Part shown: positions 2,891 to 46,143 of the stretch, piece by piece
How the letters are laid out: the number at the start of each line of letters is the position of its first letter
How positions within the stretch are numbered: the stretch's first letter is position 1
Source of the DNA: a virus
Virus record (IMG/VR): IMGVR_UViG_3300020576_004720
Span: 7,706 to 71,705 of that record
DNA: 64,000 nucleotides
Reading direction: 5' to 3' (one strand)
Notes under the pieces: model-generated
The model's database searches: none
The model's input: the letters and a program-made list of their open reading frames with translations, nothing else
Told to the model about the DNA's origin: nothing
Translations under genes and position numbers: made by a program

Positions 2891-2969
2891 TTGAGATGGA
2901 TAGAATCGAACTACCGACCTTCAGCATGTCTAATAGGAGCTGACACTCTACCAACTGAGCTACATCTCA
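2891..2969 (-). tRNA. atypical tRNA-like gene (79 nt) with an expanded 13-nt anticodon region; identity unresolved
   Basis: Acceptor TGAGATG/CATCTCA, D-arm GCTC-AGTTGGTA-GAGT, T-arm GGTAG-TTCGATT-CTATC and discriminator A are canonical. The anticodon stem TCAGC/GCTGA encloses the 13 nt TCCTATTAGACAT instead of a 7-nt loop. Confidence 0.5.
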
Positions 2970-7046: not shown

Positions 7047-7071
7047 CATATAACCCCTAAAAATGGGGTAG

Positions 7072-7143
7072 TAGCCCCGATAGGACTCGAACCTATATTA
7101 AGAGTTTAGAAAACTCCCGTTCTATCCCTTGAACTACAAGGCC
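7072..7143 (-). tRNA. tRNA-Arg (anticodon TCT)
   Basis: Acceptor GGCCTTG/CGGGGCT with three G-U pairs, D-arm GTTC-AAGGGATA-GAAC, anticodon stem GGAGT/ACTCT with loop TTTCTAA, T-arm ATAGG-TTCGAGT-CCTAT. Confidence 0.6.
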
Positions 7144-7499: not shown

Positions 7500-8018
7500 T
7501 TATCCAGTAACCTTCCTGGAAGAAATGGCACCACCATACACGGTACGCCTTTGTTCCAACCTGCGTTGGTTGCGATAAGACGTGGATGCATTCTTGAAGG
7601 AATCATTTGGAAGTTTAAACCATACTTCCCTTGTCCTTGCAGCCACATCCAAAATGAGGTTTTCACCAGAGTAACCACCTGTTTTGTCTTCATCGAAGTA
7701 CATTTCAGGCTCAAGTTTCTCTGCCTCTTGCTCTTTTCCAGCAGCCACTAAAGCATCGTACTTTTCATTGTACTTATCTTCCAGGGACTTAATCGTAGAT
7801 GTATGGATTTTAACTTCCTGCACATCATGTTGGTCAACAGGAATCATTTTTCCATCCAATTCCACATCCTGTGAACCCCTTACATAAGGAATAGGATCAC
7901 TGAGTTTCAGGATGAGTGTGGCACCATCACCCTCACTGTCGGGGACTTTCACAAAGGAATCCCATGTAAGCTCCATCTTATCAAATTTACTGATGGCAGC
8001 TAAGATACTTTTACGCAT
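7500..8018 (-). CDS. hypothetical protein (172 aa, acidic)
   Basis: ORF. Confidence 0.55.
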   Translation of the reverse strand: MRKSILAAISKFDKMELTWDSFVKVPDSEGDGATLILKLSDPIPYVRGSQDVELDGKMIPVDQHDVQEVKIHTSTIKSLEDKYNEKYDALVAAGKEQEAEKLEPEMYFDEDKTGGYSGENLILDVAARTREVWFKLPNDSFKNASTSYRNQRRLEQRRTVYGGAISSRKVTG

Positions 8019-38007: not shown

Positions 38008-38571
38008 ATGAAAGTAAGTTTAATATGTCCTGTTTGTAAATCTAAATTTGAAAAGGAAGAGAAATATATAAATTTTAGTATCAAAAAAGATTGGAAAATT
38101 TATTGTTCAAATGAATGTAAGCATATAGGAAAAGCAAAAGAATATAATTATAAATGTGCAAATTGTGGTAAAGATTTGATAGTTACTCCTAGTAGAATTA
38201 AAAGGTCTAAAACAGGAAATTTATATTGTAGTAAAAAGTGTTCGACTATAAAAAACAATACTCTTTTTAAAAAATGGGAAAATCATCCTCAATATAAAAC
38301 TGGTATAGGTAGTTATAGATGGATAAAGATAAAATCAATGAAGGAATTAAAATGTGAGGAATGTAATTTTGATAACCCTTTAGCTTTAGAAGTTCATCAT
38401 AAAGATAGAAATAGAAAAAATAATAATCTTGATAACTTACAACTACTTTGTTGTAATTGTCATACAATAAAGCATAAAACAGGTAGTGGGCTAATTGGTA
38501 AGCCGCCACATTTGGGATGTGGACATCATGCAGAATCGTCCTCTGTCTACCTGACACAAAAGATTGAATAA
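38008..38571 (+). CDS. HNH homing endonuclease (HNH-1), with N-terminal Cys-rich zinc fingers
   Basis: LEVHHKDRNRKNNNLDNLQLLCCNCHTIKH (HNH motif) and CPVCKSKF...C...C. Confidence 0.8.
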   Translation: MKVSLICPVCKSKFEKEEKYINFSIKKDWKIYCSNECKHIGKAKEYNYKCANCGKDLIVTPSRIKRSKTGNLYCSKKCSTIKNNTLFKKWENHPQYKTGIGSYRWIKIKSMKELKCEECNFDNPLALEVHHKDRNRKNNNLDNLQLLCCNCHTIKHKTGSGLIGKPPHLGCGHHAESSSVYLTQKIE

Positions 38572-38625
38572 TTTAAGCGACTAAGTTATAAAATAGATGG
38601 TTCGAATCCATTCATTGCCACATAG

Positions 38626-38700
38626 GTCCATATGGCTGAGAGGTCAAAAGCAACAATCTGCAAAATTGTAAAACCGTTGGTTCAAATCCAACTATGGACT
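38626..38700 (+). tRNA. tRNA-Cys (GCA)
   Basis: Acceptor GTCCATA/TATGGAC, anticodon stem ACAAT/ATTGT with loop CTGCAAA, T-arm GTTGG-TTCAAAT-CCAAC. Confidence 0.75.
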
Positions 38701-38706
38701 CTAAAT

Positions 38707-38780
38707 GCCTCCTATGCAGATATGGTGCTGCGTCTGCCTTGTAAGCAGAAATAGAGAGTTTTCGAGTAACTCAGGAGGAT
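38707..38780 (+). tRNA. tRNA-Thr (TGT)
   Basis: D-arm GCAG/CTGC, anticodon stem TCTGC/GCAGA with loop CTTGTAA, T-arm GAGTT-TTCGAGT-AACTC. Positions 1 and 72 are a G-A mismatch. Confidence 0.65.
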
Positions 38781-38786
38781 CTAAAA

Positions 38787-38860
38787 GGTAACTAAGCAAT
38801 TGTTGGTCAATGCATCTGTTTGAAGAACAGACTAACTCAGTTCGAACCTGAGAGTTACCA
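38787..38860 (+). tRNA. tRNA-Phe (GAA)
   Basis: Acceptor GGTAACT/AGTTACC, anticodon stem TCTGT/ACAGA with loop TTGAAGA, T-arm CTCAG-TTCGAAC-CTGAG. Confidence 0.8.
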
Positions 38861-38865
38861 CAGAT

Positions 38866-38936
38866 ACCTCGTTGGTGTAATGGTAGCACAAGAGCTTCCA
38901 AACCTCTTGGAACCTTTTCGATTAGGGTACGAGGTG
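38866..38936 (+). tRNA. tRNA-Trp (CCA)
   Basis: Acceptor ACCTCGT/ACGAGGT, anticodon loop TTCCAAA (one C-C mismatch at the base of the anticodon stem), T-arm ACCTT-TTCGATT-AGGGT. Confidence 0.65.
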
Positions 38937-38959
38937 CAGGATACTGGATGAAGAAAAAT

Positions 38960-39032
38960 TCCAATATGGGGTAATTGGTAACCCGACTGACTTTGATTCA
39001 GTAGATTCTAGGTTCGAACCCTAGTATTGGAT
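38960..39032 (+). tRNA. tRNA-Gln (TTG)
   Basis: Acceptor TCCAATA/TATTGGA, anticodon stem ACTGA/TCAGT with loop CTTTGAT, T-arm CTAGG-TTCGAAC-CCTAG. Confidence 0.8.
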
Positions 39033-39034
39033 CT

Positions 39035-39107
39035 GGTGGTTATAGCTTAATGGTAGAGCGGTACATTGTGGCTGTATTATGTGAGGGTTCGAGTCCCTTT
39101 AATCACC
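39035..39107 (+). tRNA. tRNA-His (GTG), with G-1
   Basis: Acceptor GTGGTTA/TAATCAC preceded by an extra G that pairs with C73. Anticodon loop TTGTGGC. T-arm GAGGG-TTCGAGT-CCCTT. Confidence 0.75.
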
Positions 39108-39114
39108 CTGTAAA

Positions 39115-39187
39115 CCACTTTTAGTTAAACTGGAAATAACCTTTGACTACGGATCAAAAATTATCTGTTCGAATCAGATAAAGTGGT
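39115..39187 (+). tRNA. tRNA-Arg (ACG)
   Basis: Acceptor CCACTTT/AAAGTGG, anticodon stem TTTGA/TCAAA with loop CTACGGA, T-arm ATCTG-TTCGAAT-CAGAT. Confidence 0.75.
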
Positions 39188-39390
39188 CAAAAATATATAT
39201 CTTTGTAGTATGAGAAATATCACACTTTATACTGGAGTTGGTGGTTATATAATGTTTCAAGAGTCATTAGAACAAATAACTCTTGGGACTAGAAGAGTAT
39301 ATATAGGCAAAAAGGTCCCTAGAATACTAAGAAAAGTTCATAAGAAAATAGAAAAAGCAGAAAACGGAAAATATTTTTTTAGAACAAAAA

Positions 39391-39428
39391 AATAAATTTG
39401 GATTTTTAAAAAATACATTGTATATTTG
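39391..39428 (+). promoter_or_regulatory. promoter family copy 3 (AAATAAATTTGG - 20 nt - TATATTTG)
   Basis: Exact consensus. Confidence 0.55.
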
Positions 39429-39457
39429 CACTAATTAAAAGTTATAGACATTCACAA

Positions 39458-39544
39458 ATGCAATCTTTAAATATCATAGCGATGGTGAAAGGTAATATTG
39501 AGGATAGAAACTCAATAGGGTTTGTGTTGTCTTTCTGTAAGTGA
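39458..39544 (+). CDS. candidate leader peptide (28 aa, MQSLNIIAMVKGNIEDRNSIGFVLSFCK) upstream of the Lys-Val-Arg-Asn-Met...Gly-Glu-Asp-Ile tRNA array
   Basis: Short ORF between promoter copy 3 and the terminator at 39567-39600. Codons AAA/AAG, GTG, AGA, AAT/AAC, ATG, GGG/GGT, GAG, GAT and ATC/ATT/ATA correspond to the downstream tRNAs. Confidence 0.35.
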   Translation: MQSLNIIAMVKGNIEDRNSIGFVLSFCK

Positions 39545-39566
39545 GAGTTAAGAAAATAAAATACAC

Positions 39567-39600
39567 AAGCCCTTCCCAAAAAGAAGGGCTTTTTTATTTC
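39567..39600 (+). terminator. rho-independent terminator / attenuator immediately 5' of tRNA-Lys
   Basis: AAGCCCTTC-CCAAAAA-GAAGGGCTT followed by TTTTTATTTC. tRNA-Lys starts at the next base. Confidence 0.65.
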
Positions 39601-39674
39601 TCCTCTTAACTCAGTTGGCTAGAGTAGTAAACTTTTAATTTACGAGTCGTGGGTTCGAGTCCCTCAGGGGAGAC
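39601..39674 (+). tRNA. tRNA-Lys (TTT)
   Basis: Acceptor CTCCTCT/AGGGGAG with a G-U pair, D-arm ACTC/GAGT, anticodon stem GTAAA/TTTAC with loop CTTTTAA, T-arm GTGGG-TTCGAGT-CCCTC with one U-U mismatch. Confidence 0.7.
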
Positions 39675-39679
39675 ATATA

Positions 39680-39752
39680 GAGGATTAACTCAGTTGGCAG
39701 AGTGCTTGTATTACAAACAAGAAGTCAGGATCTCGGAATTCCTATCCTCTAC
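39680..39752 (+). tRNA. tRNA-Val (TAC), non-canonical T-loop
   Basis: Acceptor AGAGGAT/ATCCTCT, anticodon stem CTTGT/ACAAG with loop ATTACAA. T-arm AGGAT-CTCGGAA-TTCCT lacks the usual TTC. Confidence 0.6.
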
Positions 39753-39757
39753 ACAAG

Positions 39758-39830
39758 TCCTTGTAACTCAACGGATAGAGTATTTGCCTTCTAAGCAAAA
39801 AGTTGTAAGTTCGATTCTTACCAAGGATAC
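39758..39830 (+). tRNA. tRNA-Arg (TCT)
   Basis: Acceptor GTCCTTG/CAAGGAT, anticodon stem TTTGC/GCAAA with loop CTTCTAA, T-arm GTAAG-TTCGATT-CTTAC. Confidence 0.75.
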
Positions 39831-39871
39831 AGGTGGGTTACCTTTCCCCGTGGAGTTAAAAAAGGAGATGT

Positions 39872-39945
39872 GGGAAGTTAGCTCATGTTGGTAGAGCAAA
39901 TGACTGTTAATCATTAGGTGAAGGGATCGTCACCCTTACTTCCCT
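39872..39945 (+). tRNA. tRNA-Asn (GTT), unusual T-loop ATCGTCA
   Basis: Acceptor GGGAAGT/ACTTCCC, D-arm GCTC/GAGC, anticodon stem AATGA/TCATT with loop CTGTTAA, T-stem AAGGG/CCCTT. Confidence 0.7.
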
Positions 39946-39950
39946 CATAA

Positions 39951-40022
39951 TGTGAGGTAATGCAGCGGTAGCAGAAAAGGCTCATACCCTTTTAGTCGGG
40001 AGTTCGAATCTCCCCCTCGCAA
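39951..40022 (+). tRNA. tRNA-Met (CAT)
   Basis: Acceptor TGTGAGG/CCTCGCA, anticodon stem AAAGG/CCTTT with loop CTCATAC, T-arm GGGAG-TTCGAAT-CTCCC. Confidence 0.75.
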
Positions 40023-40046
40023 CAGAAAAATTACTATCTTTGCAAT

Positions 40047-40511
40047 ATGGAAAAATATTTTCGGACACAAGATGGTAAAATAGTAAATATCATCGAACAT
40101 ACGCTAGATCAGATTGAAAAATTCAATCATCTAGAAATATCTATCGGAACAGATAGTCAAGACTGGGGACAAGATACCGTTTATGTAACTTGTATAGCTT
40201 ATAGATATGGAAGAAGAGGTGCTCATTTTATTTACTTAAAAGAAGTTGTATCAAGAATAAAAGATTTTAGTCAATTTACAAGATTATATGGAGAAGGATT
40301 AAGAACTCTTGAAATACATGATACTTTGACTCAAGATATCCCTATTGCTGTTAAAGCTTTGGAATTTGATTTTGCAGATGCAAAGAAAACTATAAGTTCT
40401 AAATTAGTTTCTGCGTTTAAAGGTTATGCAAACTCAACTTTTAAAACTGGAGAAATGATAGCATGTAAGGCTGCAGATCACGTCATAAGACACCCTTCTG
40501 TATATAAATAA
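40047..40511 (+). CDS. hypothetical protein (154 aa) embedded in the tRNA island; weak RNase H-like/DUF458-like GTDSQ motif
   Basis: ORF. ISIGTDSQDWGQDTVYVTCIAY is the only suggestive motif. Confidence 0.45.
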   Translation: MEKYFRTQDGKIVNIIEHTLDQIEKFNHLEISIGTDSQDWGQDTVYVTCIAYRYGRRGAHFIYLKEVVSRIKDFSQFTRLYGEGLRTLEIHDTLTQDIPIAVKALEFDFADAKKTISSKLVSAFKGYANSTFKTGEMIACKAADHVIRHPSVYK

Positions 40512-40634
40512 GTGTTACTGATGTACACAGTGTCGTAGTCCCTCTTAAGCCTCTGATTCAAGCTCAAATGAAGAGTGTAATCGTAAAGTACACATAGTTA
40601 ATAGGTTCTATCGGGCGTACAAAAACCTAAACCT

Positions 40635-40708
40635 GCAGTAGTAGTTCAATTGGTAGAATGCCGTCCTTCCAAGTCGGAGGTTTGCAAGTTCGAGTCTTGT
40701 CTACTGCA
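40635..40708 (+). tRNA. tRNA-Gly (TCC)
   Basis: Acceptor GCAGTAG/CTACTGC, D-arm GTTC-AATTGGTA-GAAT, anticodon loop CTTCCAA, T-arm GCAAG-TTCGAGT-CTTGT. Confidence 0.7.
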
Positions 40709-40711
40709 CAT

Positions 40712-40785
40712 GCCATGTTTGACTAGCGGTCTAGGTCAACACTCTTTCACGGTGTTATTCATGGGTTCGAATCCCATACATGGTA
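40712..40785 (+). tRNA. tRNA-Glu (TTC)
   Basis: Acceptor GCCATGT/ACATGGT with G1-U72, anticodon stem ACACT/GGTGT with loop CTTTCAC, T-arm ATGGG-TTCGAAT-CCCAT. Confidence 0.75.
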
Positions 40786-40789
40786 CTAA

Positions 40790-40864
40790 CGCCTATTAGG
40801 GGAGTTGGTCGTCCCTGTTCCTCTGTCTAAGGAAAGATCCTCGGTTCGAATCCGTGATAGGCGA
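40790..40864 (+). tRNA. tRNA-Asp (GTC)
   Basis: Acceptor CGCCTAT/ATAGGCG, D-stem GGGG/CCCT, anticodon stem TTCCT/AGGAA with loop CTGTCTA, T-arm CTCGG-TTCGAAT-CCGTG. Confidence 0.7.
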
Positions 40865-40867
40865 CAT

Positions 40868-40944
40868 GCTGATGTATCCTCTCTGGCTTATATCCAGTTG
40901 AAAAGGTAGTTGGTTACACATTAGTTCGAATCTAATCATCAGTA
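40868..40944 (+). tRNA. irregular tRNA-like gene (77 nt), possible tRNA-Ile(TAT)-like; D-arm missing or displaced
   Basis: Acceptor GCTGATG/CATCAGT and T-arm ATTAG-TTCGAAT-CTAAT are clear. The only anticodon-like hairpin is CTGG-CTTATAT-CCAG, which gives TAT. A D-loop-like GTAGTTGGTTAC sits where the variable region should be. Confidence 0.4.
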
Positions 40945-40947
40945 CAA

Positions 40948-40984
40948 AATAAATTTGATAAATTCGAACTTTTATCTTATATTG
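40948..40984 (+). promoter_or_regulatory. promoter family copy 4 (TTTG - 20 nt - TATATTG) with an embedded TTCGAAC hairpin; drives HNH-2
   Basis: AAATAAATTTGATAAATTCGAACTTTTATCTTATATTG is homologous to the HNH-1 promoter region. Confidence 0.5.
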
Positions 40985-41004
40985 TATATATAAAGTATAC
41001 AATA

Positions 41005-41550
41005 ATGGTTAAAAAGACAAAAATTTTGGAACTTTTTCATAAAGGATTTAGTTCTGCTGAAATATCTAAACAGTTAAGATGCTCTAAATCAACAGTAAGT
41101 TATCATTGTTCAAAATTTATTAACAAAGTTGATAAATATACACCTGAATTATTAAAAATATATCAGGATGCTTATGATCAAGGATTATCTTTTAAAGGTG
41201 TTGCTGATAAATTTAAAGTATCAAGACAATTATTAGGTAAAAAATTAAAAGCAAGAAAACTTACAAAACTTCAAATTAAACAAAAAGCTGACAAAAGAAA
41301 AAAAGGCTATAGGTTAAAAGTAAAAGAACAATGTGTAGAATATAAAGGAGGGAAATGTTGTAAATGTGGATATAATAAATGTCTTGCTGCTTTAGAATTT
41401 CATCATATTGATCCTAATAAAAAAGATTATACTATAAGTGGTGGAACTAAAAGTTTTCAAAACTTAAAGTCTGAATTAGATAAATGTATTTTAGTGTGTA
41501 AAAATTGTCATGCAGAGATACATTTTCAAATAATTAATAATGACTTGTAG
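41005..41550 (+). CDS. HNH homing endonuclease (HNH-2) with an N-terminal helix-turn-helix
   Basis: LEFHHIDPNKKDY...CKNCHAEIH (HNH motif) and AEISKQLRCSKSTVSYH (HTH-like). Confidence 0.8.
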   Translation: MVKKTKILELFHKGFSSAEISKQLRCSKSTVSYHCSKFINKVDKYTPELLKIYQDAYDQGLSFKGVADKFKVSRQLLGKKLKARKLTKLQIKQKADKRKKGYRLKVKEQCVEYKGGKCCKCGYNKCLAALEFHHIDPNKKDYTISGGTKSFQNLKSELDKCILVCKNCHAEIHFQIINNDL

Positions 41551-41613
41551 CTCAAATGGTAGAGCGTTACACTGATAATGTAAAGGTAGTGAGATCGTTA
41601 CTCACCAAGTCAA
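41541..41613 (+). tRNA. tRNA-Ile (GAT), overlapping the last 10 nt of HNH-2
   Basis: Acceptor TGACTTG/CAAGTCA, D-arm GCTC-AAATGGTA-GAGC, anticodon stem TTACA/TGTAA with loop CTGATAA, T-arm GTGAG-ATCGTTA-CTCAC. Confidence 0.75.
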
Positions 41614-41770
41614 CTAAGGGGGTGCATGTTCCAAGGCTGGCGAAGTAGTTTTGCAAACTATTTGAGAAGATTTCGATTATCTTCATCTCCACAAAATAAA
41701 TTTTGGAAGAAAAAAGAAAAGTTGTATTTTTGCCTTGGTTTTTATAGGCATCATTGTCACGGAATAGAAA

Positions 41771-41805
41771 GTCCTTCTAGAAATAGAAGGATTTTTTATT
41801 TTGAC
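41771..41805 (+). terminator. rho-independent terminator
   Basis: AGTCCTTCTA-GAAA-TAGAAGGATT followed by TTTTTATTTT. Confidence 0.65.
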
Positions 41806-42178
41806 TAATATCCCTTATTTTTGCCAAAAGGTTTTTTCCAACTTTTATCCTTTAGCACAATAAAAGTTATCTATTAAAACTAGTATGAAAGTAACTAATT
41901 CATACGATAGGATGTATAAATATCAAGCAATGTCTATCCGTGACAACTTGTACCTGCAAGAAAAAACCAAGTAGGCTAAAATACATTCCTCCGTGAAAAT
42001 ATAAAGTCCTCATAATCAACAGCCTACATGGTGAAAAGATGAGGCACAGGGACACGGGAGTTTTAGGTTAGATGAGTCTATCTAAATGCTTGAAGATAGA
42101 AACCCTACTTGCAGGGATAAACGGAGGTGTGTTTGGTAATATCAGAAATATTTAGTATATTATAATAAAAGTATAAAA

Positions 42179-43978
42179 ATGGCAATATATTACGTAGATT
42201 CCAGTTACACTGGTTCAACATCTAATGGTGGTATAAATACACCTTGGAAGTCTCTATCAAATGTAAATTCAAATATGAGTTTACTTCAACCTGGAGACCA
42301 AGTCTTATTAAAAAGAGGACAGAGTTATTCAGGAACTCTAAATATAACAAGATCTGGTAATTCATCAGCAAGAATTATTTTTGGTGCATATGGAACAGGG
42401 GCACAACCTAAATTATTAGGTACAGGTGCATCTATTAATGTTCTTATATCTATGTATAATAGATCATATATTACACTGCAAGACTGGACTATAGTAGATG
42501 AGTCTATATCTGCAGTAGATAGAACAATACAGGCAAAAATTCAAAGAGCTATTGTTCCAGATTCATCTACTAATATTACTATTACAAGATGTAATTTTGA
42601 TAGAACTGGTTGTGCGTTGTATACTACTGGTGATAATACAACTTTTACATATTCTACAGTACAGAATATGAGGATGATTAAAAACACCAAAGATGGTCCG
42701 CCTCCCGGAAATGATGATGACTATGGTGCTAATGGTGTAATTATATCTTCTTCTAATAATATTATTACAAATAATATATTTGAAGGGTGTTGGGCAGATT
42801 CATATGATTATGAATATGATGGTGGAGCAGTAGATATTTACGCTGATGTAGATTGTAGTAATAACCTTATAGCATACAATAGTTTTAATGATTGCAATGG
42901 TGTTATTGAAATTGGTGGTTCAGGTGGACGTACTGTAACCGGAACTGTATTAGCATACAATAAATGTACAAATAATGGGTCTTTTATGTATGTGAGTAAT
43001 TCAGGCACTTTTGCTACAAATGTAATTAATACAAGTATACTTAATAATGTTATTGTCGAAACTCAACCATTTAGAGTATCAAGTAATGCAATGATAGGAT
43101 ATAAGAGCACTCCTACTACAGCAGCTACTTTAACTGTAAAGAATAATATATTTCAATTATATGGTACTGTAGATGTCTATAGAGCACAGTGGAATAATAC
43201 TACTCTTATTCATGAAAATAATGTATACAAATTAAATACATCAGGAACAGGTTCATTATTAAATATTACAGCAAACCCTAGTGAGATTGTAACAAGTGCT
43301 AACTTTTGGACCTCAACTTCAGGAAATGCAAAAGATTGGAACTTCTCTCCTTTAGTTGGCAGTGTATTAATAAATGCAGGAACAAATGTGGGGTACTCTG
43401 TAGATTTTGCAGGTGTTGCTGTTAGTAATCCTCCTGAAATAGGTATTTTAGAATATGTTGCTGGTACAACAACTACTACAAGTTCTACTTCAAGTACAAG
43501 TAGTACAAGTACAACTTCTACTTCAAGTACAAGTACAACTACAACTACAACTTTAGTTCCTACTACAACAACTACTACTTCAAGTACATCAACAACATCA
43601 ACAAGTAGTACAACTACCACTAGTTCAACAACTACAACTACAAGTTCTAGTACAACTACGACTACAACTATAAATGAACCTATTCAAGGAACTATTTCTT
43701 TATCAGGAACATTACCAAGAAGAAGAGTTTCAAATATTTGTTGGAATATAAATACAAATGTACCTGTAGTAAAATATATTGAAAGAATGACAAATAATGT
43801 ATTTACAACTATTTACACTATTCCTGGTGGTTATAGTACTACAGCATCTAACTGTAGGGATATCAAATTAAGTTTAACCATTAATACTTTTAGAATTAAA
43901 GTAGTAGATAGTTATGGAAATATAAAATACTCTCAGACTATAAGTTATAATAATCAGGGATTTTTAATAGATGTTTAA
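42179..43978 (+). CDS. tailspike / polysaccharide-depolymerase-like protein (right-handed parallel beta-helix + Ser/Thr-rich linker + C-terminal domain)
   Basis: Repeated NxxIxxNxF-type pectate-lyase-fold repeats (ITITRCNFDRTGCALYTTGDN..., IISSSNNIITNNIFEGCW...). About 70-aa linker made only of Thr/Ser. Confidence 0.55.
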   Translation: MAIYYVDSSYTGSTSNGGINTPWKSLSNVNSNMSLLQPGDQVLLKRGQSYSGTLNITRSGNSSARIIFGAYGTGAQPKLLGTGASINVLISMYNRSYITLQDWTIVDESISAVDRTIQAKIQRAIVPDSSTNITITRCNFDRTGCALYTTGDNTTFTYSTVQNMRMIKNTKDGPPPGNDDDYGANGVIISSSNNIITNNIFEGCWADSYDYEYDGGAVDIYADVDCSNNLIAYNSFNDCNGVIEIGGSGGRTVTGTVLAYNKCTNNGSFMYVSNSGTFATNVINTSILNNVIVETQPFRVSSNAMIGYKSTPTTAATLTVKNNIFQLYGTVDVYRAQWNNTTLIHENNVYKLNTSGTGSLLNITANPSEIVTSANFWTSTSGNAKDWNFSPLVGSVLINAGTNVGYSVDFAGVAVSNPPEIGILEYVAGTTTTTSSTSSTSSTSTTSTSSTSTTTTTTLVPTTTTTTSSTSTTSTSSTTTTSSTTTTTSSSTTTTTTINEPIQGTISLSGTLPRRRVSNICWNINTNVPVVKYIERMTNNVFTTIYTIPGGYSTTASNCRDIKLSLTINTFRIKVVDSYGNIKYSQTISYNNQGFLIDV

Positions 43979-44016
43979 AATAAATTTGGTTTTTGTAAAT
44001 TATTATACTATATTTG
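43979..44016 (+). promoter_or_regulatory. promoter family copy 5 (AAATAAATTTGG - 20 nt - TATATTTG)
   Basis: Exact consensus. The ATG of the leader ORF lies 5 nt downstream. Confidence 0.55.
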
Positions 44017-44020
44017 CATC

Positions 44021-44092
44021 ATGAAAAATAACAAACTATATAGTTCCTTATCGTATCTCTTACAAAGTAAGAGCAGGGATTATATTGTTTAA
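44021..44092 (+). CDS. candidate leader peptide (23 aa, MKNNKLYSSLSYLLQSKSRDYIV) of the Leu-Leu-Ser-Ser-Tyr tRNA operon
   Basis: 12 of 23 codons are Leu/Ser/Tyr (CTA, TTA x2, CTC, TAT x3, AGT x2, AGC, TCC, TCG). This matches the five downstream tRNAs. A terminator follows 25 nt after the stop. Confidence 0.4.
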   Translation: MKNNKLYSSLSYLLQSKSRDYIV

Positions 44093-44117
44093 AAATAATT
44101 ATATTGTTTACAATAAA

Positions 44118-44149
44118 ACCCTGCCAATTTTGGTGGGGTTTTTCTTTTT
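44118..44149 (+). terminator. rho-independent terminator / attenuator abutting tRNA-Leu
   Basis: ACCCTGCCAA-TT-TTGGTGGGGT (10-bp stem with two G-U pairs) followed by TTTTTCTTTTT. tRNA-Leu starts at the next base. Confidence 0.65.
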
Positions 44150-44235
44150 GGGGATGTGGTGGAATTGATAGACACCCTAGACTTAGGATCTAGTGTTAAT
44201 AAACTGGCGTGAGAGTTTGAATCTCTCCATCCCTA
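44150..44235 (+). tRNA. tRNA-Leu (TAG), type II with long variable arm
   Basis: 86 nt. Acceptor GGGGATG/CATCCCT, anticodon stem CTAGA/TCTAG with loop CTTAGGA, T-arm GAGAG-TTTGAAT-CTCTC. Confidence 0.7.
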
Positions 44236-44240
44236 CAAAT

Positions 44241-44314
44241 GGTCTAGTAAGCTAACTGGGAAAGCTATAAAACTTAAAATTTTATGTTTGTGAGTTCGAA
44301 TCTCACCTAGACTA
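44241..44314 (+). tRNA. tRNA with anticodon TAA (Leu UUA) but short type I architecture (74 nt)
   Basis: Acceptor GGTCTAG/CTAGACT, anticodon stem TAAAA/TTTTA with loop CTTAAAA, T-arm GTGAG-TTCGAAT-CTCAC. Variable region is only 5 nt. Confidence 0.6.
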
Positions 44315-44318
44315 CAAT

Positions 44319-44405
44319 GGTAAGGTGCTCAAGTGGTCATAAGAGCCTCGCTTTGAAAGCCTGTGTGATGTAAAAGTCCCGTGGGTTCGAATCCCACCCT
44401 TGCCT
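44319..44405 (+). tRNA. tRNA-Ser (TGA), type II
   Basis: 87 nt. Acceptor GGTAAGG/CCTTGCC, anticodon loop TTTGAAA (imperfect stem), 17-nt variable arm, T-arm GTGGG-TTCGAAT-CCCAC. Confidence 0.6.
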
Positions 44406-44410
44406 CAAAT

Positions 44411-44494
44411 GGAGAGTTGCAGGAATTGGTAAACTGTTCTGTTTGCTAAACAGAAGATGTAAAAGTCGCAAGAGTTCGAATCTTGTACTCTCCT
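44411..44494 (+). tRNA. tRNA-Ser (GCT), type II
   Basis: 84 nt. Acceptor GGAGAGT/ACTCTCC, anticodon stem TCTGT/ACAGA with loop TTGCTAA. Its 15-nt variable arm resembles that of the neighbouring Ser tRNA. Confidence 0.65.
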
Positions 44495-44504
44495 CATAAT
44501 CAAT

Positions 44505-44576
44505 GGGATAGAAAGCAGGGCACTTAGCAACGTCTGTAAAACGTAGGCTCGTGAGTTTCGAGTACTCCCTATCCCA
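44505..44576 (+). tRNA. tRNA-Tyr (GTA)-like, short (72 nt) with a weak D-arm
   Basis: Acceptor GGGATAG/CTATCCC, anticodon stem ACGT/ACGT with loop CTGTAAA, T-arm TGAGT-TTCGAGT-ACTCC. No long variable arm. Confidence 0.5.
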
Positions 44577-44675: not shown

Positions 44676-45308
44676 ATGATAGATTCAGATTTAAAAAGAT
44701 GTGGAGTTTATAAAATTACAAACTTAAAAAATAATAAGGTATATATCGGTAGTACTACAAAAACATTATATAGTAGAAAAAGGTCCCATTTTTTAAAATT
44801 AAAAAATAATATTCATTTCAATACACATCTTCAGTTGTCATTTAATAAATATGGCGAGAATTTCTTTACATTTGAAATATTGGCAATATGTAAAGAAGAA
44901 CATACAGTAATATTAGAAAATTTCTTTATTAAATTATACTCTTCGCATTTAAAAGATAAAGGTTATAATATGGCTATTCCATTAGAATTACCAGTTCCAA
45001 ATATTTCAAATAAAGGTAAAAAATTTTCTGAAGATCATAAAGAGAAAATATCATATTCATTAAAAAGAAATTGCTATTGGAAAAATAAAAAACAGCCTCA
45101 ATCTATGATCTCTAAAAGATCTGAAAAAAATAAAAAACTTATTCAACAAATATGTAAAAGTACTGGTAAAATTTTAAATACCTGGAGTTTTGAAGAAGCC
45201 AAGAAGAATGGTTATTATCCTTCTGCTGCTAGAAATTATATACAGGGCAAGAGAAAGTCTTATAAAGGATTTGATTGGAAAATAATAAAAAAATTATATG
45301 ATAAGTAA
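44676..45308 (+). CDS. GIY-YIG homing endonuclease
   Basis: GVYKITNLKNNKVYIGSTT (GIY-...-YIG) near the N-terminus. Confidence 0.75.
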   Translation: MIDSDLKRCGVYKITNLKNNKVYIGSTTKTLYSRKRSHFLKLKNNIHFNTHLQLSFNKYGENFFTFEILAICKEEHTVILENFFIKLYSSHLKDKGYNMAIPLELPVPNISNKGKKFSEDHKEKISYSLKRNCYWKNKKQPQSMISKRSEKNKKLIQQICKSTGKILNTWSFEEAKKNGYYPSAARNYIQGKRKSYKGFDWKIIKKLYDK

Positions 45309-46143
45309 AAAGGAAATAGAAAAATTTATTTTGGTTCGTAAGGGGTATCTTAAAAAATCTCCACATGTTACATTAGAGGCAATTTGGAAAAGTCTTCCAA
45401 AAACTACTGCTAAAACTATAAAAGAAGCACAAAAAGAACTAGAACTTGTAAAAAGTGTTCAATCTGAGCTTAGAGAAGCTGATAAAATTATTCATTCTAC
45501 ATCAGATCTTGCCTTATTAGAAACCTACAATTTAATACATAAAGAAAGAGAAAGACCTAAAAGAAAACTATTCTTTGACATAGAGGTTAGTCCAAATATT
45601 GTAACTTCTTGGAGAATTGGTTCAGATATAAAACTTTCACATGAAAATATTATACAAGAAAGGGCGGTCATATGTATTTGTTGGAAATGGTCAGATTCTG
45701 ATAAAGTAGAATCTTTACAATGGAAAGATGGAGATGATTATGAAATGTTAGTAAAATTTGCTAAAATCATAGATTCTGCAGATGAAACAGTTACTCAAAA
45801 TGGAGATTCTTTTGATATTAAATGGTTGAGAACTAGATGTTTATATCATAGAATTGAACTCTCTCCAAAGTTTAACTCTATAGATACTTTAAAAATGGCA
45901 AGAGCAGGTTTTAAATTTAATTCAAATAAACTTGATTATATGGGACAATTCCTAGGTCTTGGTGAAAAAATTAAAACTGAACCAGATTTATGGAAAAATA
46001 TTGTACTAAAGAATTGTAAAGTATCTATGAAAAAAATGATAGATTATTGTAAACAGGATGTAAATCTTTTAGAACTAGTTTATAATGAATTACAAAGTTA
46101 CTCACCTATTAAAAAGTTTAAATATAAGATCCCTCTGAAGTGA
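45298..46143 (+). CDS. DEDDy-type 3'-5' exonuclease (DnaQ/family-B proofreading-like), standalone
   Basis: Exo I LFFDIEV, Exo II NGDSFDIKWL, Exo III YCKQDVNLLELVY. Confidence 0.6.
   Translation: MISKKEIEKFILVRKGYLKKSPHVTLEAIWKSLPKTTAKTIKEAQKELELVKSVQSELREADKIIHSTSDLALLETYNLIHKERERPKRKLFFDIEVSPNIVTSWRIGSDIKLSHENIIQERAVICICWKWSDSDKVESLQWKDGDDYEMLVKFAKIIDSADETVTQNGDSFDIKWLRTRCLYHRIELSPKFNSIDTLKMARAGFKFNSNKLDYMGQFLGLGEKIKTEPDLWKNIVLKNCKVSMKKMIDYCKQDVNLLELVYNELQSYSPIKKFKYKIPLK

Follow-up and report, generated by a model that had tools for sequence, protein, structure and literature searches.

The viral record IMGVR_UViG_3300020576_004720 (IMG/VR) carries an array of transfer RNA (tRNA) genes in which a tRNA for leucine and the tRNA for tyrosine lack the long variable arm. 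We analysed 64,000 nucleotides (nt) of this record, positions 7,706 to 71,705 (hereafter the window), which is judged from its genes to be a crAss-like phage. By the textbook rule, the bacterial tRNAs for Leu, Ser and Tyr are class II. Definitions of the tRNA classes are given in PMC2377443 and PMC7609411. The arm-less Leu and Tyr tRNAs described here appear, from comparison with related contigs, to be conserved phage families, whose oddities are real and selected and not the product of decay or misreading. We consider it about two-thirds probable that these are working elongator tRNAs of the phage, remodelled while keeping what host synthetases read, and not decayed genes.

The window encodes 27 tRNA genes or candidates, which together cover all 20 amino acids (coordinates are on the plus strand unless marked otherwise). 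ARAGORN at default settings called 23 of them; the Rfam tRNA model (RF00005, gathering score 29 bits) added a tRNA-Val(UAC) at 39679–39751 and a weak match at 40868–40944, and ARAGORN at a relaxed threshold added a tRNA-Ala(UGC) near 41618–41692 and the tRNA-Tyr(GUA) near 44505–44576. For comparison, the window was set beside 20 related contigs (loci designated L021 and so on); over all loci these yielded 403 distinct tRNAs. Many relatives of the phage exonuclease with 57–67% identity, several of them on long contigs, came from a protein collection, and their contigs carry tRNA arrays. An earlier note on this DNA had stated that several of the tRNAs break canonical rules, and its sequence-level statements were reproduced by ARAGORN and by covariance-model scoring with Rfam, with two qualifications given below.

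Short-arm tRNA-Leu genes are conserved and covarying

The tRNA-Leu(UAA) gene at 44241–44314 has a class-I shape. It measures 74 nt up to the discriminator and has a variable loop of 5 nt (UGUUU) where the class-II form typical of bacterial tRNA-Leu has an arm of more than 10 nt, just as the earlier note had read it (a 74-nt type I shape with no long arm). The gene scores 61.8 bits against the 29-bit gathering score of RF00005 and 114.5 with ARAGORN, and it folds into a clean cloverleaf with all arms, with G1·U72, A73, U8, A14, A15 and U48 in place. Next to it, at 44150–44235, lies a class-II tRNA-Leu(UAG) with a 17-nt variable arm, in which A19 and U56 replace G19–C56.

Across the window and the related contigs there are 45 distinct tRNAs with Leu anticodons, and their variable region is 4–7 nt long in 35 and 11–19 nt long in 10. 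All three of the anticodons UAA, UAG and CAA occur among the short-arm genes. A73 is present in every one of the 45, the window gene included. Within the short-arm set, U8, A14, U48 and the D-loop GG are each found in 35 of 35 tRNAs and A15 in 34, while the alanine mark G3·U70 is found in none. In a fixed-register alignment of the short-arm helices, 92.8% of the cells are paired and double changes are seen at 19 of 21 pairs; the covariation score was 0.954, whereas shuffling gave 0.285 and slid partners gave no more than 0.168. Strains of the window phage show just three differences over the 461 base pairs (bp) of the Leu-Leu-Ser-Ser-Tyr block, all within the UAA tRNA, and two of the three make up a compensatory exchange of the pair A29–U41 for G29–C41 (strains L021 and L026).

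Many of the short-arm genes keep the characteristic tRNA-Leu D arm (UG-GYG-GAAUUGG...), and the variable arms grade in length from 19 nt to 4 nt (15–19, 11–13 and 4–7 nt). This gradation suggests that the arm may have been lost stepwise. The window UAA gene belongs to a Leu subgroup characterised by U8 and A9 together with a 4-bp D stem, and its closest neighbours among the 403 tRNAs are short-arm Leu genes. An origin of the UAA tRNA from tRNA-Ile(UAU) by a single anticodon change, with which it shares G1·U72, U8 and A9, was considered and rejected on the strength of these neighbours. An exact search of the viral contigs of IMG/VR for the D arm of the UAA tRNA gave no match.

A compact tRNA-Tyr is essentially confined to phage contigs

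The tRNA-Tyr(GUA) gene at 44505–44576 is 72 nt long. It has a perfect 7-bp acceptor stem, a 1-nt connector, a D arm consisting of a 3-bp stem (AAG/CUU) and a 7-nt loop (CAGGGCA), an anticodon loop CUGUAAA, a T arm with the loop UUCGAGU, and A73. Its anticodon arm is extended by AGC:GCU over an A/AG internal loop, and a 2-nt junction precedes the T arm. Standard tools largely overlook this gene: ARAGORN finds it at the relaxed threshold only, with the acceptor shifted (score 94.7), the Rfam tRNA model run on the window gave no match to it even at E ≤ 10, and none of eight compact relatives tested reached the Rfam gathering score. The earlier note was right about the length of 72 nt and wrong in calling the D-arm degenerate, since the 3-bp stem and the CAGGGCA loop are a conserved arrangement that covaries in the relatives.

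A search pattern was seeded with four syntenic Tyr genes of this shape (window, L027, L032 and L036), which share CAGGGCA, a gap and UCUGUAAAA. In IMG/VR it gave 20 matches, every one a tRNA of the same design, on contigs of 9–362 kb, most of them longer than 20 kb. In 185,579 species-representative cellular genomes, a collection whose size leads one to expect ~17 chance matches, the same pattern gave 29, of which 28 are without tRNA features and only one is true. The true match lies on a 69,056-nt contig that IMG/VR lists as viral and that had been binned into a Melioribacteraceae metagenome-assembled genome; this is a mis-binned phage contig. The compact tRNA-Tyr family is found in phage contigs and is essentially absent from cellular genomes.

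The family comprises 25 distinct sequences with a common design. From the 5′ end, this has a 7-bp acceptor stem, one connector nucleotide and a 3-bp D stem closing the 7-nt loop CAGGGCA; three nucleotides after the D arm then pair with three of the former variable region, and an internal loop of A opposite A-R separates this extension from a 4-bp stem with the loop CUGUAAA; 1–4 junction nucleotides, the T arm and A73 follow. In an alignment of 23 distinct sequences, 93.1% of the cells are paired, with double changes at 20 of 22 pairs and a covariation score of 0.863 (0.239 when shuffled, at most 0.142 when slid). The D stem is 100% paired, with as many as five pair types per position, and within the arm extension the pairs 23:44 and 24:43 form in all sequences while switching between G–C and A–U and between G–C and C–G, respectively.

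A covariance model made from this alignment (R1) sets the members (68–81 bits; 76.3 for the window gene) apart from all other tRNAs (at most 36 bits). With the model, the Tyr genes of L035 and L029 were recovered as two additional members that the viral pattern search had not supplied; the former fits the pattern and the latter does not. In the L029 gene (9435–9505) the D loop is CAGAGCA and the T loop UUUGAGU, so that A19 with U56 replaces G19 with C56, and the anticodon stem has an A31–U39 swap beneath an unaltered anticodon loop. The CUGUAAA loop likewise occurs in members retrieved independently of the pattern. As for the marks of bacterial tyrosyl-tRNA synthetase (TyrRS), G1–C72 is present in 19 of the 23 aligned sequences and A73 in all 23.

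The design departs from bacterial tRNA-Tyr, with its class-II arm and standard D arm (two connector nucleotides, 3–4 bp and a loop of 8–11 nt), and in most arrays, that of the window included, the compact form is the sole tRNA-Tyr. In L049, on the minus strand, a compact 71-nt tRNA-Tyr (1671–1741) adjoins a class-II tRNA-Tyr (1747–1829; 86 nt by ARAGORN), which offers a natural pair for comparison. Judged by its alignment, the compact tRNA-Tyr is a coordinated redesign of connector, D arm and extended anticodon arm, and not a case of mere erosion. Taken together, the conserved families and their compensatory changes argue that both the short-arm tRNA-Leu and the compact tRNA-Tyr are functional tRNAs, and not pseudogenes or frameshift or suppressor tRNAs.

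Tertiary pairs are exchanged in the T loop and the elbow

A further departure concerns the T loop. In place of the usual U54–A58 motif, three tRNAs of the window carry A54 and U58: tRNA-Pro(UGG) at 38480–38554 (AUCGUCC; called by ARAGORN), tRNA-Asn(GUU) at 39872–39945 (AUCGUCA) and tRNA-Ile(GAU) at 41541–41613 (AUCGUUA). The ATCGTYA loops that the earlier note had reported for Asn and Ile are thus confirmed, with Pro as a similar case. The Ile(GAU) genes of L029, L030 and L035 have AUCGUUA as well, and that of L055 has AUCGUAA, likewise with A54/U58. Among the 403 distinct tRNAs, positions 54/58 are U/A in 364, A/U in 22, A/A in 3 and U/U in 2 (Fisher p = 1e-30), and the swapped combination is spread over 9 isotypes and 14 loci. 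These AUCGUYA T loops therefore appear to preserve the 54–58 tertiary pair in swapped form.

A second exchange affects the elbow. Those tRNAs that have U56 carry GA in place of GG in the D loop, the class-II tRNA-Leu(UAG) at 44150–44235 being one of them; here, in L029 9435–9505 and in ~12 other tRNAs (L029–L053), the elbow pair A19–U56, with a UUUGA T loop, replaces G19–C56. This exchange is a tertiary Watson–Crick covariation. Covariation of both tertiary pairs (54–58 and 19–56) would be hard to explain unless the RNAs take up the usual L shape.

Identity elements, decoding and the proposed path to function

The serine tRNAs serve as an internal control. Both tRNA-Ser genes of the window, Ser(UGA) and Ser(GCU) at 44319–44494, keep the long variable arm, as do all 19 distinct tRNA-Ser sequences in the data set (83–92 nt), whereas the arm has been lost in 35 of 45 tRNA-Leu sequences and throughout the compact tRNA-Tyr family. 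TyrRS depends mainly on the acceptor end and the anticodon (E. coli identity set). For bacterial leucyl-tRNA synthetase (LeuRS) the identity set is A73 together with the tertiary core, and deletion of the variable arm chiefly reduces affinity (PMC2377443); seryl-tRNA synthetase (SerRS) uses the long variable arm as an identity element (PMC7609411). The ranking of arm loss among Ser, Leu and Tyr agrees with how strongly the respective synthetases are reported to depend on the arm.

Other features are those of ordinary elongator tRNAs. The discriminators are those expected for each isotype (U in Cys, C in His, G in Trp, Asn and Asp, and so on), and the Leu and Tyr anticodon loops are of the ordinary 7-nt kind, with sense anticodons, U33 and a purine at 37. 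In the codon usage of the phage, TTA makes up 43% of Leu codons and ATA 42% of Ile codons, AGA dominates among Arg codons, and Tyr codons account for 4.8% of all codons; the long open reading frames (ORFs) of the window read normally in the standard code. No aminoacyl-tRNA synthetase was found among the 20 larger ORFs scanned with Pfam, and scans with Pfam, PHROGs and NCBIfam gave no synthetase or tRNA enzyme among the ORFs tested. The earlier note had proposed that such tRNAs might need a phage-specific charging route; none is needed, as the LeuRS and TyrRS identity elements are kept and the 20 scanned ORFs hold no synthetase.

We propose that the tRNAs are transcribed as part of the array, excised by host RNase P and 3′ processing enzymes, and completed by the host CCA-adding enzyme, since only 26 of the 403 tRNAs encode CCA. 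Host LeuRS would then charge the short-arm tRNA-Leu, in which A73 and the core (U8–A14, A15–U48, G18G19) are kept and from which the arm is dispensable for the bacterial enzyme; the tRNA would read UUA and UUG, the Leu codons most used by the phage. The compact tRNA-Tyr, its anticodon arm presumably lengthened with nucleotides of the former variable region, would be charged by a bacterial-type TyrRS, for which G1–C72, A73 and the GUA anticodon are kept, and would read UAY. As judged from the genes, expression and CCA addition are probable, and charging, most likely, is by host LeuRS and TyrRS.

Loss of the arm may have been favoured as an escape from host nucleases that cut or grip a long variable arm, for example PtuAB. 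The PtuAB nucleases of Septu and retron-Eco7 cut tRNA-Tyr within its variable loop, and phage tRNA-Tyr genes defeat them by a distinct variable loop or by gene dosage (PMC13096335, PMC11555353, PMC12673091); a T5-derived tRNA-Tyr, in particular, is reported to resist cleavage owing to its distinctive variable loop (PMC13096335, a 2026 paper). An arm-less tRNA-Tyr would offer PtuAB no such site. That the arm-less Leu and Tyr tRNAs represent counter-defence across a widespread crAss-like lineage, with the compact tRNA-Tyr an undescribed natural fold used on bacterial ribosomes with a bacterial TyrRS, is a tentative proposal, with the odds against it.

Singleton oddities in the window

Four further tRNA genes of the window are peculiar in ways that the relatives do not share. 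At the position of Ile(UAU), the gene at 40868–40944 with the anticodon TAT has no 5′ D arm and carries a D-arm-like hairpin (GUA-GUUGGU-UAC) in a 21-nt variable region. Its acceptor stem, anticodon arm (CUUAUAU) and T arm are perfect, with ~7 nt at the place of the D arm; Rfam scores it at 30.6 bits, aligning it with the D arm deleted (4 nt for 15) and an 18-nt insertion in the variable region. This bears out the earlier note, which had described acceptor and T-arms with a displaced D-like element. The gene is syntenic with the canonical Ile(UAU) of the relatives, and a pattern scan of viral contigs for a second copy of the oddity gave no match. A D-arm-like hairpin 3′ of the anticodon arm would be remarkable if the gene is active; recombination in a cassette-swapping array near homing endonuclease genes could equally have produced the gene.

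The 79-nt tRNA-Arg(CCU) gene at 2891–2969 (minus strand) has two competing folds. The covariance model gives a perfect UCAGC/GCUGA stem around the 13-nt anticodon loop that the earlier note had reported, and ARAGORN draws a 7-nt loop (CU-CCU-AU) on an imperfect stem, with 12 unpaired nt in the variable region; the long loop is therefore one of two folds. Neither a pattern scan for homologues nor the relatives of its 702-amino-acid neighbour turned up a similar tRNA. The tRNA-Val(UAC) at 39679–39751 (Rfam 46 bits, missed by ARAGORN) has the T loop CUCGGAA, as previously stated, and in addition a U53·U61 mismatch; the Val genes of the relatives are canonical, which makes this T loop a singleton. 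Finally, the weak tRNA-Ala(UGC) at 41618–41691 (relaxed ARAGORN 91; Rfam 16.7 bits) has G3·U70 and A73. Read from the sequence, its D stem has one G–C and three U·G wobbles and its T stem is rich in A and U; it is syntenic with the canonical Ala(UGC) of the relatives.

Intact acceptor and T stems, the expected discriminators and C74 in the TAT, CCT, Val and Ala genes argue for function or for a very recent origin. Single-sequence minimum free energy (MFE) folding was uninformative, giving z-scores of −1.9 to +0.05 and several folds that are not even cloverleaves.

The tRNA array, its relatives and its neighbouring genes

Assignment of the window to the crAss-like phages rests on a large terminase and a portal protein that match crAss-type PHROG families, and on the presence of CrAss_Ring_1/2 (tail ring proteins 1 and 2). 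The G+C content is 32%, and the terminase is only ~25% identical to those of cultured crAss-like phages of Flavobacterium and Bacteroides. The exonuclease gene lies at 45298–46143 and is on record in contigs of up to 122 kb and turns up in several metagenomes. The main tRNA array (ARAGORN and Rfam) spans 38480–44576 and holds 24 tRNA genes or candidates amid HNH, GIY-YIG and PF04308 genes; three more tRNA genes lie outside it on the minus strand (1190–1264, 2891–2969 and 7071–7143).

Relatives with ~60–65% exonuclease identity arrange the array as the window does: Pro, Thr, Cys, Phe, Trp, Gln, His, Arg, Lys, Val, Arg, Asn, and onwards through Met, Gly, Glu, Asp, Ile(UAU), Ile(GAU), Ala, Leu, Leu, Ser and Tyr. 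They carry well-formed Ile(UAU), Ala(UGC) and Tyr genes exactly where the window has its weak candidates. The base 3′ of the discriminator is C in all 27 tRNA genes and candidates of the window (for example at 44315 and 44577) and in 395 of the 403 distinct tRNAs, the usual trailer being C followed by A or T. Matching positions in the relatives and this array-wide C show that the weak tRNA calls are not due to chance. The C after the discriminator looks like a selected 3′-processing signal, perhaps one that halts exonucleolytic trimming ahead of CCA completion. A wobble pair G1·U72 closes the acceptor stem in 101 of the 403 tRNAs, an unusually high frequency; these include the UAA tRNA, the TAT gene and the Ile(UAU) and Val tRNAs of the relatives. 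Megablast of the array against a phage collection returned nothing beyond 40-nt tRNA fragments, and the exonuclease relatives in IMG/VR (~54% identical) had no tRNA within the retrieved flank of at most 10 kb.

Inside the array, at 40047–40511, lies a gene for an RNase H-like protein of the Pfam family PF04308. Each of the nine related loci that are annotated has a homologue within its tRNA array, among them L021 (4196–4669), L027 (7598–8113), L029 (6535–7053), L030 (7839–8279), L032 (5668–6192), L035 (5788–6246) and L036 (5202–5678). Searches of the PDB and NCBIfam gave no match. Its protein is a candidate phage factor in tRNA processing.

The array is also subject to exchange. Window 39834–40781 and L021 3158–5486 hold unrelated cassettes, although the flanks are 99% identical between these two strains. 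In L021 the cassette comprises another Asn gene, whose T loop is normal (UUCGACU), an additional HNH_2 gene, a Met gene of 88 nt and an additional Gly(GCC), which suggests that tRNA cassettes are exchanged beside homing endonuclease genes.

Several other features of these arrays were recorded. In the window, a 599-amino-acid ORF at 42179–43978 interrupts the array; its linkers are long and rich in Thr/Ser, and its N-terminus weakly matches a lacto-N-biosidase model, so that it is possibly a glycan-binding or glycan-degrading virion protein. In L045, a GOLLD RNA (Rfam RF02032, 272.5 bits) lies inside the tRNA array of the related viral contig (1780–2200, minus strand). At 2626–2701, L032 has a tRNA with an 8-nt anticodon loop, AUUUCAAC, for which ARAGORN gives the 4-base anticodon UUCA (Rfam 45.8 bits); this tRNA is possibly a UGA suppressor or a quadruplet reader. 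Amber suppressor tRNAs with the anticodon CUA occur in L041 (3197–3272) and L056 (1140–1212) and are consistent with stop-codon reassignment in some relatives.

Weighing the alternatives

Several points weigh against the view that these are remodelled, working tRNAs. The A15–U48 pair is weakened as a Leu-specific mark, since 46% of the other tRNAs in these AT-rich arrays have it, so that A73 and the absence of a competing identity mark make the stronger argument. Loss of the arm is not obligatory, as the window phage keeps its class-II tRNA-Leu(UAG) and some relatives keep a class-II tRNA-Tyr. In the compact-Tyr alignment (A3), the D-loop and anticodon-loop columns were fixed by the retrieval pattern and their invariance is partly by construction; only six members of the family are independent of the pattern search. 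The TAT, CCT, Val and weak Ala genes are identical among close strains and counterparts were not found elsewhere, and the TAT, CCT and Val oddities, which have no comparative support, may be defective. With respect to counter-defence, the open-access literature searched gave no bacterial nuclease aimed at the variable arm of tRNA-Leu, and in E. coli deletion of the variable loop of the SP15 tRNA-Tyr abolished its rescue of infection (PMC12673091), so that simple arm loss is not automatically compatible with function; this result fits a need for additional core remodelling in the compact family. Neutral erosion under AT pressure, finally, is a serious rival, given that many other changes run from G–C to A–U.

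According to this last explanation the tRNAs are functional and their changes non-adaptive: AT-biased mutation, together with weak constraint on accessory phage tRNAs, would erode dispensable parts, the Leu variable arm among them, and let conserved pairs shift to uncommon variants compatible with the fold, without any link to defence. The low G+C content is in keeping with it, as are the shifts from G–C to A–U (A19–U56 in at least 12 tRNAs, 22 cases of A–U or U–A at 53–61, and the 101 G1·U72 closures), the continuum of variable-arm lengths, and the sharing of arrays by long and short forms. It accounts less well for the compact tRNA-Tyr, a coordinated redesign sharply set apart from other tRNAs, for the exchange of U54–A58 for A54–U58, which leaves base composition unchanged, and for the preponderance of short over long tRNA-Leu, 35 to 10, over divergent contigs. 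We regard it as rather unlikely.

The reading of the deviant genes as pseudogenes, which the earlier note had offered first, here takes the form that they are relics of recombination in an array churned by homing endonucleases. It draws on the missing normal D arm of the TAT gene, the 16.7 bits of the Ala gene, the U·U at 53–61 in Val and an insertion-like 6 nt in the CCT gene, on the unremarkable MFE z-scores, on the whole-cassette replacement between strains beside HNH genes, and on the failure to find homologues with the same oddities. For the Leu, Tyr and A54/U58 tRNAs it is contradicted by their conservation, their compensatory changes and the co-occurrence at 54/58. Even among the weak candidates the acceptor and T stems are perfect and the discriminator of the isotype and the array-wide C74 are kept, and these genes fill otherwise empty slots (Ala, Tyr, Val and Ile-AUA) of the 20-amino-acid set. 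For the deviant genes as a group this explanation is very improbable; among the singletons, those at 40868–40944 (TAT) and 2891–2969 (CCT) may be pseudogenes or unusual decoders.

It has also to be considered whether the compact Tyr RNA takes no part in translation and serves as a decoy or inhibitor, titrating away a host nuclease directed at tRNA-Tyr. PtuAB toxicity is neutralised by overexpressed tRNA-Tyr (PMC12673091), and L049 has a class-II and a compact tRNA-Tyr together. However, the compact form is the only tRNA-Tyr of most arrays, and its conserved G1–C72 (19/23), A73 (23/23), CUGUAAA loop and T loop are features of charging and decoding, which leaves this explanation little room.

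Least likely of all is that the tRNAs are special decoders, whether frameshift or quadruplet readers, suppressors, or recoders of UUA or UAY through non-cognate charging: LeuRS ignores the anticodon, making anticodon switches easy, the CCT gene may have a 13-nt loop, and relatives have the 8-nt-loop tRNA (L032) and the CUA suppressors (L041, L056), but the frameshift or suppressor decoding suggested by the earlier note is countered in Leu and Tyr by standard 7-nt loops with sense anticodons for the commonest codons of the phage, the short form occurs with all three Leu anticodons as in ordinary Leu decoding, neither G3·U70 nor any other foreign identity mark is present, the UAA tRNA has Leu tRNAs as its nearest relatives, and the long ORFs are normal in the standard code.

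Relation to known tRNAs and significance

Phage tRNA arrays, and phage tRNAs that evade host tRNases, are established. In the open-access literature searched, neither a conserved arm-less tRNA-Leu nor the compact tRNA-Tyr fold nor an A54/U58 T loop was found described for phages of bacteria. Class-I tRNA-Leu and tRNA-Tyr are known from animal mitochondria, and class-I tRNA-Tyr from archaea and eukaryotes. The phage genes resemble these in placing Leu and Tyr anticodons on a variable loop of 4–5 nt; they differ in that the first pair is bacterial (G1–C72 or G1·U72, not C1–G72) and that they are genes of phages of bacteria. The short-arm tRNA-Leu also recalls the delta-V-arm tRNA-Leu of A. aeolicus, an arm-less tRNA-Leu that LeuRS still uses given A73 and the tertiary core (PMC2377443). 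That molecule was engineered and has lower affinity, whereas the phage genes are natural, conserved and diversified.

For the compact tRNA-Tyr, the closest likeness is to mammalian mitochondrial (mt) tRNA-Ser(UCN), the 'type I mt-tRNA' of PMC7609411, and to tRNA-Pyl, in which, as in the phage tRNA, a single nucleotide connects the acceptor and D stems, the D loop is small, the anticodon stem is elongated and the variable region is tiny, at ~3 nt (PMC7609411). Like mt-tRNA-Ser(UCN), the phage tRNA keeps G18G19 and the T-loop consensus, and like the tRNA-Pyl of M. alvus, it has a long anticodon stem broken by unpaired A residues (PMC7609411). Unlike either, it has GUA, G1–C72 and A73, an anticodon arm of 4 bp, internal loop and 2–3 bp, and an invariant 7-nt D loop CAGGGCA, and its genes are carried by phages of bacteria instead of organelles or methanogens. 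The resemblance is structural only and implies no common descent.

With the tRNA-Tyr of T5, SP15 and T6, which counter PtuAB and in which the variable region decides the outcome, the compact family has in common that it is a phage-encoded tRNA-Tyr. Those phages rely on a long or longer arm, or on dosage; the crAss-like family has dropped the arm altogether. Phage anticodon-loop variants that evade anticodon nucleases (PMC10264068) are similarly tRNA variants selected to resist host tRNases, and T5 tRNA-Lys against PARIS is a further case of tRNase evasion as cited in PMC11555353. In contrast to those anticodon-loop variants, the changes in the crAss-like tRNAs lie in the body of the molecule, in the variable arm, the D arm and the T-loop pair.

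These findings have practical consequences. The Rfam tRNA model misses the compact tRNA-Tyr, an annotation gap that makes phage tRNA sets look incomplete. Orthogonal tRNAs could be built with the compact tRNA-Tyr and the short-arm tRNA-Leu as scaffolds, and both are ready substrates with which to define the requirements of LeuRS, TyrRS, EF-Tu, the ribosome and modification enzymes (m5U54, m1A58). For the biology of these phages, they yield the testable idea that phages may escape tRNases directed at the variable arm by dropping the arm. In these arrays a natural, diversified set of phage tRNAs departs from the textbook rule for Leu and Tyr and never for Ser, as the need of the synthetases for the arm predicts.

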